Source: Escherichia phage ECO95 1-6-1. Taken from it: a stretch of 47,511 nucleotides of DNA. Within the stretch, counting starts at the first letter, position 1; each line of letters starts with the position of its first letter. The position numbers were made by a program, and so were the translations under genes. The stretch lies in sequence record OR845258; one strand, written 5' to 3'. Below are positions 653 to 39,593 of this stretch, one piece after another. Under the pieces are notes generated by a model. It saw nothing but the letters and a program-made list of their open reading frames with translations, made no database searches and was not told the DNA's origin.

Positions 653-688
653 ATCTACATCAACAAGTATTGACGATTGACGTAGATT
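653..688. promoter_or_regulatory. divergent promoter/operator region with conserved TTGACGTAGATT element
   Basis: Intergenic between minus ORF 426..623 and plus ORF 721..921. Contains ATCTACATCA (reverse orientation) and tandem TTGACG-A-TTGACGTAGATT, the same 12-mer seen at about 3514 and 39551. Confidence 0.4.
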
Positions 689-720
689 AAGTCAAGATGT
701 TTTCTAAAGGAGAGTAAGAA

Positions 721-921
721 ATGCCAAGACCGCGCCGAGAGAAGAGTGAAGTAGTGACAGCAATCGTGAAGAAAAGACAGCCTCTTAGTCTGCGTGATGT
801 GCGTTACTTTGCGCGATGCTATGTCGAGCTTGCTGATATGAGCAAAGAAGAGATGTATGAGTACATCAGGGCTAATTTTAACGTTGACGAAAACAATAAA
901 GTGACATTAAGAGGTGAGTGA
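721..921 (+). CDS. hypothetical protein (66 aa)
   Basis: ATG preceded by AAAGGAGAG RBS; first gene after the promoter region. Confidence 0.55.
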   Translation: MPRPRREKSEVVTAIVKKRQPLSLRDVRYFARCYVELADMSKEEMYEYIRANFNVDENNKVTLRGE

Positions 922-1460
922 TGAGTGAATGCAAGAAAGCATGGAAATACCTGAAAGGCAGTGAGAGGGATTTTGAAGGCGCGCCGGATTGGGTAACAAG
1001 GAGAATTAAAGGGGAATGGACTAGCAAGCATTCATTTGTCGGCGTCGTTGGTAGACGGATCCATGTTTGCGATATTGGCGACGAAAACCGTGACGGCGTT
1101 GCATTTAATGAAGGTTATCGTTATGAGATTATCGCCCAACGCGAACCAGTTACCGCCGCAGATGTCGAGGTGGTCAAATACGACCCGACGAAAGTTGATA
1201 TCGAATCACTGGTCAATGAGCGTGGCAATCGTTACGGTAAATTCGCTGATGGCGCTAAAATCATGCGCTCACTAAAAGGAGTGATGCACAATACTGATGG
1301 ATGGTCACGATTAACTGATAGCCAACGCGAAGCGCTGGACATGATTCAGCACAAAATCGGTCGCATCCTGAATGGCGACCCGGCATACGATGATAACTGG
1401 AAGGATATCGCTGGTTACTCAAAACTTATCGCAGATGAATTGAATGGAGAGATCAAATAA
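921..1460 (+). CDS. hypothetical protein (about 179 aa)
   Basis: ATG at 921 with GAGGTG RBS 4 nt upstream (the ORF track starts at the GTG at 918); stop overlaps the next start. Confidence 0.55.
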   Translation: MSECKKAWKYLKGSERDFEGAPDWVTRRIKGEWTSKHSFVGVVGRRIHVCDIGDENRDGVAFNEGYRYEIIAQREPVTAADVEVVKYDPTKVDIESLVNERGNRYGKFADGAKIMRSLKGVMHNTDGWSRLTDSQREALDMIQHKIGRILNGDPAYDDNWKDIAGYSKLIADELNGEIK

Positions 1461-1675
1461 TGGCAGATTGCAAATTACATTTGTCTGGTCATTTTGAGTG
1501 CAACGGATTCGCGTGCAAAATGTCGACAAAGCATATCTCAATCGAGATGGCTGGAGATGGCGTTAAAGTTGAATATTCTGCTGGGGTGTTTTCCCCAGCT
1601 GAAATTCAGCAAGCAATCGAACTTATCACCAAGGTAAATAAAATCGTCAGTAAAGGCGGAATGGAGAAATTTTAA
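1460..1675 (+). CDS. hypothetical protein (71 aa)
   Basis: ATG with GGAGAG RBS, translationally coupled to the upstream gene. Confidence 0.5.
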   Translation: MADCKLHLSGHFECNGFACKMSTKHISIEMAGDGVKVEYSAGVFSPAEIQQAIELITKVNKIVSKGGMEKF

Positions 1676-1950
1676 TGGCATTCACCGACATTACAATCGC
1701 ACAACGCAACTCCGATTACACAAATGTAACCGACCCATCCGCAAAGCTGGTATCACTCAATCGTGACGGCGATGCAGTGTTAGAAATCAGCACCGCTACC
1801 GCAGAGTTTATCGTGCAGAACCTTTCGCTGCATGCCGGAAAGCCTGTGATTATCAGCACTGGCAGCACGTATTTCCTCGCGGGTAATTATGTAGCACCGA
1901 AGCTGGAGTGTTCACTGGTGCGGATTGTGGAGGCGCAAAGTGACATTTAA
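1675..1950 (+). CDS. hypothetical protein (91 aa)
   Basis: ATG with GGAGAAA RBS; ATGA-type overlap with the upstream stop. Confidence 0.5.
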   Translation: MAFTDITIAQRNSDYTNVTDPSAKLVSLNRDGDAVLEISTATAEFIVQNLSLHAGKPVIISTGSTYFLAGNYVAPKLECSLVRIVEAQSDI

Positions 1951-2194
1951 AACTGGCGGCGTGATTGATTCAATAAATACATTTATTATTGGCGAGATTG
2001 CTACACCATCAGAGTCGCCAGTACACAAACGATTTGCGCGCGAGCCAGTAGCCTACATCGTCACCGACAATCGTGGCAAGCGTTACCTGGTATTTGCTGG
2101 CAGTGTTGAGTATGAGAATGCGCAGATGTTTGGGTATGAAATTAAACCACTGTATGAGCGAGAGAGAAATGGAAGAGAAAAAGTATGTTGTTGA
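1925..2194 (+). CDS. hypothetical protein (start uncertain)
   Basis: ORF in the same operon; the track start is a non-ATG codon and the true start may be the internal GTG near 1961. Confidence 0.35.
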   Translation: MWRRKVTFKTGGVIDSINTFIIGEIATPSESPVHKRFAREPVAYIVTDNRGKRYLVFAGSVEYENAQMFGYEIKPLYERERNGREKVCC

Positions 2195-2318
2195 GTTCAC
2201 TGAGGGTGAGCTTAATCAGGTAATGGAGTGTATCAAGCAGGCGTGGGCTGATGGCTTTGATGATAAAGACCTTGAGAGCGCCGGAAGCAAGATTGTCGAC
2301 AGGCTTGATGACCTTTAA
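2169..2318 (+). CDS. hypothetical small protein (49 aa)
   Basis: Internal ATG at 2169 (M33 of track ORF 2073..2318); followed by a terminator. Confidence 0.35.
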   Translation: MEEKKYVVEFTEGELNQVMECIKQAWADGFDDKDLESAGSKIVDRLDDL

Positions 2319-2320
2319 AA

Positions 2321-37518: not shown

Positions 37519-37916
37519 TAGAGTGTCATCTCCTTCTTAATCACGCCATCAACAAGGTCTTTTGTGCGCTGCGCTGCTTTGGTCAGGAATTGTGGTTCAC
37601 CACCAGGACTCCAATATGTGCCATTACCATTGCTGCGCGGTTTCCCTGTAAGTTTGCCGCTGGCATTGTGGACGTACAGGGCATATTTTGCAGAATAACC
37701 AACCTTGCCAGTGATTCGCGTTCCGCTAACTTCCACAGTATCAAACTGACTGTTAATCAGAGTCGATGTATCAATTGGCGTTAGCGTGGCTGATTCGGTG
37801 CGGATGATATATGTCGCCGACTTGATCGCACGCACAGCTTTCGTGGCGATTATCTCATCCACAATTTGCGAAGTTCTCTCCACAGCCTGCCTGACGCCTC
37901 TTAATTTCGCTGGCAT
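37518..37916 (-). CDS. head-tail joining protein (HK97 gp10-like)
   Basis: 132 aa; composition and position fit HK97 gp10-type tail-completion proteins. Confidence 0.45.
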   Translation of the reverse strand: MPAKLRGVRQAVERTSQIVDEIIATKAVRAIKSATYIIRTESATLTPIDTSTLINSQFDTVEVSGTRITGKVGYSAKYALYVHNASGKLTGKPRSNGNGTYWSPGGEPQFLTKAAQRTKDLVDGVIKKEMTL

Positions 37917-38263
37917 TATGTCACCAATGCAAAGTCTGGCGGCTCTGCCCTGTTGAAAGTTGAGCCATAATTAATCACATTCAGAATCTGGTTTGCACCA
38001 GCTGCCAGTGGGTCAACTTCTGTCACCGTGCCAATCATGATGTAATCACCCACCTTAGCGCCAGTGTATTCTGTCCAGAAGGTATTTTTCTGCACAATCT
38101 CATTGCCTTTCGCATCTGTCGATACATCATCATTAAAGCCATAATCGCACATGATGCTTACTGGTGCATCAAAAGTTGGCTTTCCGTACTTGTCAGTGCC
38201 GCTTTTGTGCCAGATGGTGCATGGTTGCGTGTAGCTCCAGTTAGCAAGCGAAGTCATTTGCAC
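37916..38263 (-). CDS. putative head closure / head-tail adaptor protein
   Basis: 115 aa in the connector cluster; positional call. Confidence 0.4.
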   Translation of the reverse strand: MQMTSLANWSYTQPCTIWHKSGTDKYGKPTFDAPVSIMCDYGFNDDVSTDAKGNEIVQKNTFWTEYTGAKVGDYIMIGTVTEVDPLAAGANQILNVINYGSTFNRAEPPDFALVT

Positions 38264-38646
38264 TTACTCCCGCGCACAACCGCAAACCACGGTTTACCGC
38301 TTCCGTCAGGGTCTTCAACCAAATCGCCAGTGCATCCTGCCGTATCCAGTAGTTTCATCTGATTGTACAGCGCCACCCACGGCTTACTGCCATACGCGAA
38401 TGATTGTGATGCACCAGATGGTGCACTTTGACTGGTAACGTAGCGCCCTGCAGTATTCGCGCTAATCAGGATGGAGGCCCACAGCATGATCGCATTTTGT
38501 CGGCATTCATCATTGGGATAGTTCAGCTCAAGGCATTCGCTGATTGATGCCACAAGGCACAGAATACCTGACGCATCCGTTGTGGTGATAGTCATTCCAC
38601 GGGATGCCATCTGGCTTACTAATTCTTCAGGTGTTGGTGCTGCCAT
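38254..38646 (-). CDS. putative head-tail connector protein
   Basis: ATG at M13 of the track ORF with GGGAG RBS; positional call. Confidence 0.4.
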   Translation of the reverse strand: MAAPTPEELVSQMASRGMTITTTDASGILCLVASISECLELNYPNDECRQNAIMLWASILISANTAGRYVTSQSAPSGASQSFAYGSKPWVALYNQMKLLDTAGCTGDLVEDPDGSGKPWFAVVRGSKCK

Positions 38647-38911
38647 TTTTTTTCGACTCCCGTACCTTCCACCACATTTCAAACAGGTTCTTTATTACCA
38701 GAGACAGAGCGCCGAGGATTGACGCTACTGCCGCCCACTCTGTCAGGCCGTGTGGAATCATAGCCTCAAAATAAGATTGCGTGACAGGTGTTTGCTCTGC
38801 AACTTTCAGGCCGATGCCGGTTCCAATAGAAGCATATCCAGCCTTATCAATCACCTGTCCTGTCGTCCCGCTTATAATCTGCTCTGCGACTTGTCTTAGT
38901 GCTCCGTTCAT
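38627..38911 (-). CDS. hypothetical protein with C-terminal hydrophobic segment
   Basis: 94 aa; hydrophobic stretch WAAVASILGALSLVIKNLF. Confidence 0.35.
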   Translation of the reverse strand: MNGALRQVAEQIISGTTGQVIDKAGYASIGTGIGLKVAEQTPVTQSYFEAMIPHGLTEWAAVASILGALSLVIKNLFEMWWKVRESKKNGSTNT

Positions 38912-38943
38912 TGCGTGTCTCGCTGATGATATGTTTCCAGCAC

Positions 38944-39384
38944 TTATAGATTTGAATCAGCGAAAAAACGATGGCGACCACGCCAAGAATAATGTCCAAT
39001 TTCGCCGCCCCATTTAAAAGTGATGGAAAGGATGAACAGATGGATGCCGATAATAATAAATGCGTACTGCGCATGAAGCGGCGTTTCTACAGGCGTGACA
39101 AATTCCCATACGAATGACTCTATCGCAACCAGCCATTCGTAAAGGCTCATCGTTAGCACGCAGAGCGCCATCTTTGTGCTTTTGCGCAGCGCAATAGCCG
39201 GAAACAACCAGATCATAGACTGCGCAAGGTAATACAGATATTCGGCGGGAAATGAATCAACAAGCACCCATCCAAGATACACAGACATCACCATTGCCGG
39301 AATGAACACCAGAAACGCAATCATGCCAGTGCAGGCGAATCCCAGCACATACATGATCATGATGGCAACATCTGCGCCGAACAT
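38944..39384 (-). CDS. polytopic membrane protein
   Basis: 146 aa with at least four hydrophobic helices; TAATG-coupled to an unlisted 39-aa basic Gly/Ser-rich ORF at about 39384..39503. Confidence 0.45.
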   Translation of the reverse strand: MFGADVAIMIMYVLGFACTGMIAFLVFIPAMVMSVYLGWVLVDSFPAEYLYYLAQSMIWLFPAIALRKSTKMALCVLTMSLYEWLVAIESFVWEFVTPVETPLHAQYAFIIIGIHLFILSITFKWGGEIGHYSWRGRHRFFADSNL

Positions 39385-39550
39385 TATTTCTTACCGCGCG
39401 ATGGTGAACGGGTGGAGCCGTTTGGCTTCACTGCGCCAGTTTTGCCGCCAGTTTTGGTGTTGCCAGTAGCGCGTGAACGAGACGGACCGTTTGTTGAACC
39501 CATGTTTAAATCTCCTGTTGTTTGATTAGCATAATTTTAGCATATTCCAG

Positions 39551-39593
39551 TTGACGTAGATTGATGAGGTGTTTATAGTTAGTGACGTAGAAA
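39551..39593 (+). promoter_or_regulatory. sigma70-like promoter of the plus-strand island
   Basis: TTGACGTAGATT at 39551-39562, then TATAGT 17 nt after the TTGACG; a second GTGACGTAGAA at 39583-39593. Confidence 0.5.

Follow-up and report, generated by a model that had tools for sequence, protein, structure and literature searches.

A recurrent 12-bp intergenic box as a probable promoter element in Escherichia phage ECO95 1-6-1 and related siphophages

Genome organization and the recurrent box

This analysis concerns a short sequence, here called the box, that recurs between the genes of Escherichia phage ECO95 1-6-1 (sequence record OR845258) and is probably a core element of promoters of the sigma70 type. 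The window, i.e. the whole stretch of 47,511 bp, covers all or nearly all of the genome of a virulent siphophage of enterobacteria. Contigs of Salmonella phage S.Kent 1-2-1 match it with 100% identity over two stretches, of 6.2 kb and 12.9 kb, the identity over aligned segments is ~89% with Escherichia phage Sa179lw (Buchananvirus) and Salmonella phage LPST10 (Skatevirus), and the IMG/VR contig 3300045988_084438 holds the same sequences as the window. Gene positions are approximate; they were obtained with a crude codon-usage gene finder and checked against annotated relatives. The large structural genes lie on the minus strand and are broken up by short plus-strand blocks of small genes. Hairpin terminators were found at the ends of the rightward blocks and close units at 2322-2342, 5182-5204, 9769-9788, 35083-35102, 37121-37141 and 42509-42531. 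A leftward cluster of small genes, which includes a Lar-like zinc ribbon gene (47131-47373), occupies positions 1-623 and 46120-47511; since this cluster spans the ends of the window, the sequence appears to be a circularly permuted whole genome.

The consensus TGRYGTAGAWW occurs 18 times without mismatch, against 0.40 expected occurrences and a maximum of 3 in 100 shuffles. The heptamer GTAGATT has 14 matches (4.9 expected; 14 was reached in none of 100 shuffles) and is, with its extensions, the most intergenic-enriched of the 7-/8-mers in the window, and TTGACGTAGATT with up to two mismatches is found 18 times against 4.2 expected. The claim of an earlier note on this DNA that near-identical elements recur between the genes is thus borne out, and chance or compositional artefact is ruled out by these counts, by the shuffles and by the non-coding bias. 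When all intergenic GTAGA(A/T) sites were aligned without selecting their flanks, the four bases 5' of GTAGA proved informative (T in 84-90%, G in 90-92%, then R and Y; 86 unique sites), so that the TGATG, TGACG and GGTG forms can be treated as a single 11-mer. Together with one copy carrying one mismatch, 19 copies were counted; coordinates refer to the 12-mer, i.e. the 11-mer plus the base before it. The box is asymmetric and not palindromic, the spacing of the copies is irregular (11, 17, 21, 23, 29 and 31 bp), and inverted pairs are separated by 13 or 16 bp.

Non-coding sequence makes up 12.9% of the window and contains 16 of the 18 exact boxes (binomial P = 7e-13). The other two lie under a doubtful open reading frame of 80 amino acids (33730-33972) without a ribosome-binding site and without a homologue. 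An equal frequency inside genes, which the earlier note had set against its own proposal, was not observed. Every copy is co-oriented with a gene or tRNA on the same strand. Proximal boxes end 25-35 nt before start codons with ribosome-binding sites; counting either the proximal copies or their partner -10 hexamers, the ends lie ~23-41 nt from such start codons. That the sites lie upstream of operon starts is broadly true, but several are distal, being the second or third copy at a locus and 44-131 nt away from the start codon, and the box at 34429 ends 9 nt from an ATG. The coordinates listed previously were correct within 1-3 nt, but the copies at 3485, 9362 and 39582 had been missed.

The box sites are as follows, with -35 and -10 assignments predicted from the sequence; extended -10 denotes the element TGnTAnAAT.

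652-663, minus strand: box TTGATGTAGATT, facing gene 426-623 (minus), with 28 nt from the end of TAGATT to the ATG; conserved in relatives; shares 3 bp, face to face, with a plus-strand extended -10 at 646-654
677-688, plus strand: box TTGACGTAGATT, ending 32 nt before the ATG at 721 (gene of a predicted winged-helix protein); the sole -35 candidate is weak (TCAACA at 17 bp)
721-921, plus strand: gene for a basic protein of 66 amino acids (isoelectric point 9.2), the first gene downstream of the inverted box pair
3485-3496, plus strand: distal box CTGATGTAGATT, adjoining the minus-strand extended -10 of the lysis operon; not kept in the Sa179lw type, degenerate (CAGATT) in Roufvirus
3514-3542, plus strand: box TTGACGTAGATT (3514-3525) as -35, 17 bp, -10 CATAGT (3537-3542); serves unit 3574-5105
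3542-3553, minus strand: box TTGATGTAGATA, forming an inverted pair with the box at 3514; the lysis gene starts 68 nt downstream, at 3473
9266-9300, plus strand: distal box CTGATGTAGATT (9266-9277) and one-mismatch box TCGGTGTAGATT (9289-9300), overlapping a minus-strand promoter TTGACC-17-TAGTAT (9306-9278)
9345-9373, plus strand: tandem boxes 17 bp apart, TTGACGTAGAAA (9345-9356) as -35 and GTGATGTAGATT (9362-9373) as -10; the ATG at 9409 lies 35 nt downstream
11821-11832, minus strand: box ATGGTGTAGAAT, followed directly by the extended -10 TGTTACAAT (11811-11819); the gene served by both is 11348-11767 (minus)
15264-15292, minus strand: box TTGACGTAGAAT (15292-15281) as -35, 17 bp, -10 TAGATT (15269-15264); ATCATCGAAAC in the leader, ATG at 15233 30 nt downstream
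33840-33862, plus strand: boxes ATGGTGTAGATA (33840-33851) and ATGATGTAGATT (33851-33862), 11 bp apart; the latter is paired with TTGATG at 17 bp, and 33 nt separate its end from the start of the HNH-AP2 endonuclease gene at 33896
34390-34419, plus strand: TTGACA, 18 bp, TAGATT within box GTGGTGTAGATT (34408-34419); ATG at 34450, 30 nt downstream
34429-34440, plus strand: extra box CTGATGTAGATT, covering ~+3 to +15 relative to the promoter before it and ending 9 nt from the ATG
35929-35940, plus strand: box TTGATGTAGATA, upstream of the Rha/KilAC gene 35966-36631; overlapping hexamer GATAAT (35937-35942) with TTGATG at 16 bp
36640-36668, plus strand: TTGACA, 17 bp, TAGATT within box GTGGTGTAGATT (36657-36668), leading to a 370-nt leader, tRNA-Met (CAT) at 37039-37115 and a terminator at 37121-37141
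39551-39593, plus strand: box TTGACGTAGATT (39551-39562) as -35, 17 bp, TATAGT (39574-39579); serves unit 39621-42502
39582-39593, plus strand: second box GTGACGTAGAAA, across the predicted start site of the 39551 promoter

The leader of ~370 nt in front of the tRNA (window 36669-37143) has neither an Rfam match nor a convincing gene, and its sequence varies between relatives; a general RNA-family search matched only the tRNA. The endonuclease gene at 33896 has its own pair of boxes. It belongs to a set of HNH genes dispersed in the structural region (12014-12517, minus; 33896-34378, plus; 29739-30230, plus), which look like homing endonuclease genes by sequence. Those at 12014-12517 and 33896-34378 match Pfam HNH_3 and have a sub-threshold AP2 match, and the call for 29739-30230 comes from the annotation of relatives only.

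The box within putative promoters and its conservation

Four arrangements of the box can be distinguished. In Type I (34390-34419 and 36640-36668), TTGACA is followed after 17-18 bp by TAGATT, and the box corresponds to the -10. In Type II (9345-9373), two boxes are 17 bp apart and the TTGACG of the first is the -35 for the TAGATT of the second; the promoter at 15292-15264 has the same layout, but its -10 TAGATT lacks the upstream half of the box in this window. In Type III, TTGACGTAGATT provides the -35 and is followed after 17 bp by TATAGT or CATAGT (39551-39579, 3514-3542), and Type IV is an inverted pair with poor -35 hexamers (652-663, 677-688). TTGACG-17-TAGATT or CATAGT is accordingly found at 9345, 15292 and 3514, and in all four TTGACGTAGAWW copies (3514, 9345, 15292, 39551) the TTGACG half is the -35, with the -10 exactly 17 bp downstream. 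The three best promoter matches between 28000 and 47511 are the box promoters at 34390, 36640 and 39551. These matches and the proximal spacing of 25-35 nt agree with the earlier proposal that the motif is part of sigma70-like promoters. The accompanying statement that many copies fit TTGACR, 17-18 nt and TAGATT holds for 34408, 36657, 9362, the 15292/15264 pair and, weakly, 33851, but was overstated, as only 4-5 copies are concerned. Similarly, TAGATT can be read as the -10 in some copies, but at 3514, 9345, 15292 and 39551 it is the TTGACG half that matters, as a -35.

If the box is taken as the -10, a -35 with at least 5/6 matches at 16-18 bp is present in 3/19 copies, compared with a background of 1.8%. 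A usable -10 is present for 4/8 of the TTGAY boxes, always at exactly 17 bp, compared with a background of 6.3%. A stringent canonical partner therefore exists for 7/19 copies, three with the box as -10 and four with the box as -35. A -10 with A at position 2 and T at position 6, i.e. TAGATT or TAGAAT, is found in 14/19 copies. Upstream of this hexamer, the box carries TG at -17/-16 (84-92%), R at -15, Y at -14 and G at -13.

We consider it probable, with moderate confidence, that the box is a core element of a sigma70-type promoter family that drives the non-structural units. These would comprise small accessory or early-type gene clusters, homing endonucleases, the Rha moron and a tRNA. The 3' half, TAGATT, would act as the -10 hexamer and keeps A at -11 and T at -7; the 5' half, when it reads TTGAYG, could serve as the -35 hexamer for a neighbour 17 bp downstream. 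A canonical promoter would then consist of two boxes at 17 bp, or of one box and an ordinary hexamer at 17-18 bp. Extra copies would create tandem start sites, and the TG at -17/-16 and the G at -13 may aid host RNA polymerase where a -35 is missing. The units are probably early, because Lar and, in relatives, an anti-restriction gene are among their first or early members. The occurrence, location, geometry and conservation of the box and the selection on it are established here; host sigma70 polymerase would be its simplest reader and accounts for the geometry.

Conservation was analysed in Sa179lw, LPST10, Skate, Aeromonas phage pIS4-A and Vibrio phage pYD38-A, which contain 11-17 exact boxes each, all of them non-coding. 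Among intergenic words, the box ranks first or nearly so in Sa179lw, LPST10 and pIS4-A, the portal protein of the last being only 70% identical to that of the window, and it is over-represented in pYD38-A; its range thus reaches the Aeromonas/Vibrio Roufvirus. Yersinia phage P400 (portal protein 54% identical) has no box, and a variant, RGGTAGATW, is enriched between its genes. Neither the box nor this variant was found in Kp4862-1 and BHUENT6 (portal proteins 42-44% identical). In P400, AAAGTGCT and a leader motif, TTCATCGAAAC, are also enriched (e.g. 4700-4760, 13570-13640, 23931-23880). The leader sequence ATCATCGAAAC equals this P400 motif and follows 3' of TAGATT at window 15250-15260 and in Sa179lw, LPST10 and pIS4-A. 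Another leader sequence, TCATCGAAAC, was rejected as a general part of the element, as it occurs once in the window.

Orthologues of the 39551 site were gathered by means of their leader, leaving the box itself unselected (~42 unique sequences). TTGACGTAGATT and TATAGT are nearly invariant in them and the 9-11 nt in between are hypervariable, and the second box at 39582 varies only as TG(A/C/G)(C/T)G. At the 677 site, variants with TAGATT have a dead downstream hexamer (CAACAA or CAATAA), and variants with TAGAAA have CAAGAT 17 bp from TTGACT, which matches at 3/6 positions and includes A at position 2 and T at position 6; a -10-like hexamer is thus always available at this site. Where boxes stand in tandem, the halves that serve as -35 and -10 do not vary, and the unused halves drift (TAGAAA, TAGATA or TGGATA, and GTGATG or ATGGCG). 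As judged from these alignments, selection acts on the box itself. The promoter, leader and ribosome-binding site at 39551-39620 are almost invariant, and the first gene occurs in 24 N-terminal types among 43 unique sequences. Many of the first genes behind this promoter (window 39594-40244 and orthologous loci) begin with M(K/N)EFKGTPGPW and then diverge fully; the slot may be a hypervariable anti-defence slot.

Several observations weigh against a promoter element read by host sigma70 polymerase. No stringent canonical partner is present for 12/19 copies, and 5/19 copies (6/20 of the intergenic GTAGAW sites) read TAGAAA or TAGATA and do not qualify as a -10, since A at -7 should cripple such a hexamer; at 39582, GTAGAAAC is nevertheless invariant in the ~42 orthologues, within a conserved leader. 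The conservation of TGRYG cannot be explained by a known polymerase contact, because the TGs are at -17/-16 and/or -14/-13. At 39551, TAGATT is selected right beside the -35, although polymerase normally does not read there, and the box at 34429, which is absent at that position in relatives, is too near the ATG for a promoter. The enterobacterial hosts concerned should have practically the same sigma70, and the different extension in P400 therefore hints at a phage-specific reader. The sigma70 reading thus leaves the TAGATT after the -35, the TAGAAA/TAGATA copies, the 34429 box and the P400 extension unexplained. In addition, transcription start data for any member of this phage group were not found in searchable papers.

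Other identities of the box were considered and set aside. A disguised extended -10 requires TG at -15/-14, and the TGs of the box are in the wrong register. Host sites for CRP, MetJ and IHF did not fit, as judged by eye only. The 14-mer TTGACGTAGATTGA matches many IMG/VR contigs, but those outside the Skatevirus/Roufvirus group have at most 2 copies (one, or a single inverted pair) and no window proteins; these matches are probably due to chance, and a widespread phage element was therefore rejected. Three IMG/VR contigs without window proteins contain the perfect inverted pair AATCTACATCAA-N7-TTGACGTAGATT, which could reflect chance or independent use of the box. In the searchable literature, which excludes subscription journals, the motif strings and a promoter description for this phage group were found nowhere.

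A second promoter class at structural and lysis operons

The element TGnTAnAAT is present at 14 sites in the window against 9.1 expected, a total that is not significant on its own. However, 12 of the 14 sites are on the minus strand, and 10 of these lie 23-91 nt upstream of the starts of structural or lysis operons. The sites often read TGTGATAnAAT; a -35 hexamer was not noticed, although no systematic examination was made.

646-654, plus strand: extended -10 TGATACAAT, face to face with the box at 652-663
3497-3505, minus strand: extended -10 TGATAAAAT, 23 nt upstream of the lysis operon start; adjoins the box at 3485-3496
33809-33817, minus strand: extended -10 TGATATAAT, 26 nt upstream of the tail-gene operon start at 33782
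35863-35871, minus strand: extended -10 TGATATAAT, 36 nt upstream of the major tail protein gene
39534-39542, minus strand: extended -10 TGCTAAAAT, 30 nt upstream of gene 39384-39503 (minus)
45633-45641, minus strand: extended -10 TGGTATAAT, 30 nt upstream of the capsid operon
5855-5863, 8242-8250, 11811-11819, 26226-26234 and 28805-28813, all minus strand: other extended -10 sites

The positions of these elements are conserved in LPST10, pIS4-A and P400, with distances of 34-35 nt for the portal gene, 30 nt for the capsid operon, 34-36 nt for the major tail protein gene, 32-33 nt for the tail fibre gene and 23-26 nt for the lysis operon. From sequence and position, the structural and lysis operons appear to use extended -10 promoters. 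Three of the elements adjoin or overlap a box on the opposite strand with the -10s facing each other (TACAATCTAC at 646/652, TAGATTATTTTA at 3491/3497 and TAGATTATACTA at 9272/9278). Back-to-back arrangements with a box at a distance of 8-22 bp are found for two others, those at 39542 (box 39551-39562, 8 bp) and at 33817 (boxes 33840-33862). Since several boxes adjoin or overlap these elements, whether facing them or back to back, we infer that polymerase binding at the box promoter and at the extended -10 would be mutually exclusive. At the portal gene, a terminator-like hairpin (CCCTCC...GAGGGATTTTTT) follows directly after the extended -10 TGCTATAAT and precedes the ATG (window 8208-8253); the predicted start of the portal transcript therefore falls inside the hairpin.

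Candidate readers, rival explanations and known systems

As possible regulators acting at the motif, the earlier note had named a Cro-like helix-turn-helix protein and the Rha protein. Pfam matches identify a Cro/YdaS-like helix-turn-helix protein (19312-19554) and a Rha/KilAC protein (35966-36631). The former has no homologue in LPST10, Skate and pIS4-A, the latter none in any of the five relatives tested, and both are thus missing from phages that keep the box, which rejects them as general readers. The box also differs from lambdoid Cro/CI-type operators, as it is asymmetric and irregularly spaced and the Cro/YdaS-like gene is not conserved, and Rha does not co-occur with it. The divergent region that separates the Cro/YdaS-like gene from the replication genes (19555-19700) contains TTGACGCAAATT on the minus strand with CATTAT at 17 bp, TTGACGTATCTT on the plus strand, and TTGCGTCAA/TTGCGT repeats; these sequences are probably the Cro-like protein's own operators, distinct from the box. 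A protein with a ParB/KorB helix-turn-helix domain (40625-41434) is conserved in all phages with the box. In the KorB regulon of IncP plasmids, a single palindromic operator is repeated at many promoters, and the window resembles it in combining an element repeated at many promoters with an encoded KorB/ParB-type protein. The box, however, is not a palindrome and does not strictly co-occur with this gene; the protein is encoded in Kp4862-1 (49% identity), which has no box, and is missing from P400, which has the box variant. A ParB/KorB-like reader is weakened accordingly.

The 721-921 protein is a candidate for a box-binding regulator. It is found in every genome with a TAGAT-type box, including P400 (34% identity), and is absent from Kp4862-1 and BHUENT6; this distribution carries little weight, because several other genes show the same pattern. 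Searches of Pfam and PDB sequences gave no match. A structural model built with 24 homologues (predicted local distance difference test score 86) consists of helix-strand-helix-short helix-helix followed by two short strands. Nearly all of its fold neighbours are winged-helix domains, none of them significant (Foldseek E >= 0.3), and a ribbon-helix-helix fold was rejected, as the model gave helix-strand-helix-helix with a wing. This bears on the comparison with immI of phage P22, where the overlapping promoters Pant and Pmnt are controlled by Arc and Mnt and the operator half-sites contain TAGA. The likeness, which serves as a lead only, consists of face-to-face overlapping promoters, TAGA subsites and an adjoining gene for a small regulator. 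In contrast to immI, no ribbon-helix-helix protein was found, and the box is asymmetric and distributed over ~10 intergenic regions instead of one locus.

If not a promoter element alone, the box may be, or may also be, the operator of a phage-encoded DNA-binding regulator that is laid over core promoter elements, a reading that we hold to be possible but tentative. Such a regulator, for which the winged-helix-like 721-921 protein and the ParB/KorB-type protein are the candidates, would shut off or tune all non-structural units jointly and, at the face-to-face sites, would also control the extended -10 promoters of the late operons; this is compatible with sigma70 promoters and need not replace them. 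Selection where polymerase does not read argues for an operator, as seen for TAGATT between the -35 and the hypervariable spacer and for the second box across the start site, which has the same C/T wobble (TGACG, TGATG) as other boxes. The retained TAGAAA/TAGATA copies, the extra box at ~+3 to +15 (34429), the boxes over start sites or -35 regions of the extended -10s at 646, 3505, 9283 and 39542, and the lineage-specific upstream extension in P400 point in the same direction, as does a basic protein with a confident winged-helix-like model that tracks TAGAT-type boxes. On the other hand, asymmetry and irregular spacing are unlike dimeric operators, the drift of unused tandem halves is expected under selection for -35/-10 functions, relatives do not keep the distal boxes at 3485 and 34429, and each protein considered has the shortcomings described above, Cro-like and Rha being excluded as general readers. 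It is doubtful, though conceivable, that one small phage protein, best represented by the 721-921 product, reads the box and makes the ~10 bidirectional promoter pairs a genome-wide toggle; if so, accessory units would be turned off and late operons released together via the overlapping -10 elements.

Unlikely is a reading in which the box is recognized by a phage-modified polymerase, through a small sigma-like factor or a MotA/AsiA-type appropriation of sigma, and the box promoters, as a middle class, are not read by the host polymerase in its unmodified form. T4 middle promoters combine a MotA box near -30 with a sigma70 -10, and in four of the promoters analysed here the 12-mer lies at -35 to -24, 11 bp upstream of a -10, which is roughly the location of the MotA box. 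The many copies without a -35 and the many conserved small proteins of unknown function in the phage would also fit. Different from T4, however, the box holds a normal -35 (TTGACG), other copies coincide with the -10, and several pair with a perfect TTGACA at 17-18 bp as in ordinary sigma70 promoters. Lar and anti-restriction-type genes, which the phage should require as soon as it enters the cell, also belong to the box units, and the 28 proteins scanned contain no member of the sigma, MotA or AsiA families; the MotA activation domain appears for the 721-921 protein only at rank 32 (E = 1.4). Very improbable, finally, is that the boxes are junction sequences of mobile cassettes, homogenised by recombination and without a reader beyond generic hexamers. 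In its favour, the conserved 39551 promoter and leader precede a gene of 24 N-terminal types, and box promoters stand before window-specific or mobile genes (Rha/KilAC and the HNH-AP2 endonuclease). A box that stays fixed while the spacer beside it is hypervariable, all in a single promoter of 30 bp, the covariation of the -10 at the 677 site, which suggests function, and the informative TG-R-Y 5' of GTAGA across 86 unique sites speak against it. The cassette-like context is reminiscent of morons, the promoter-gene-terminator cassettes of lambdoid phages. Box promoters likewise precede lineage-specific Rha/KilAC and HNH genes and rightward blocks end in terminators, but the terminators at the Rha and HNH genes are common to the next unit, and the box also drives conserved multi-gene units and a tRNA.

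The favoured reading, a sigma70-type promoter family, has well-known counterparts, since phage-specific families of this type are described for the early promoters of T4 and T5 and in many phage genome papers. As in the T4/T5 early families, an extended consensus is repeated, intergenic only, gene-oriented, more conserved in its positions than host promoters and, as we infer for the box, read by host polymerase. In contrast to those families, the -10 of the box is TAGATT, preceded by TG at -17/-16 and a fixed G at -13, one and the same 12-mer can be the -35 or the -10, and tandem copies occur at 17 bp. With extended -10 promoters (TGnTATAAT) it shares conserved bases directly 5' of the -10 and a -35 that is often missing, but its TGs are at -17/-16 and -14/-13 instead of -15/-14. 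The family thus works like phage-specific early promoter families and is real but fairly ordinary; its unusual features are the single 12-mer that doubles as -35 and -10 and the face-to-face promoter pairs.

For Skatevirus, Buchananvirus, Roufvirus and their relatives, a widespread but uncharacterised set of siphophages from enterobacteria, Aeromonas and Vibrio, these results provide a first transcription map, with two promoter classes divided by strand and function. Several of these phages are under development for biocontrol. The box promoters represent a compact, portable set and mark hypervariable slots for accessory genes, probably including anti-defence genes. A simple and testable model of a temporal switch would follow from the overlapping promoter pairs, provided that the box is read by a phage factor.

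The minus-strand box promoter at 15264-15292 lies within a non-coding, AT-rich region of 669 bp upstream of the primase/helicase genes (window 15234-15902). This region contains ~8 copies of CCGCTTCCC/GGGAAGCG in both orientations as well as T-runs, and is probably a replication origin with iterons.

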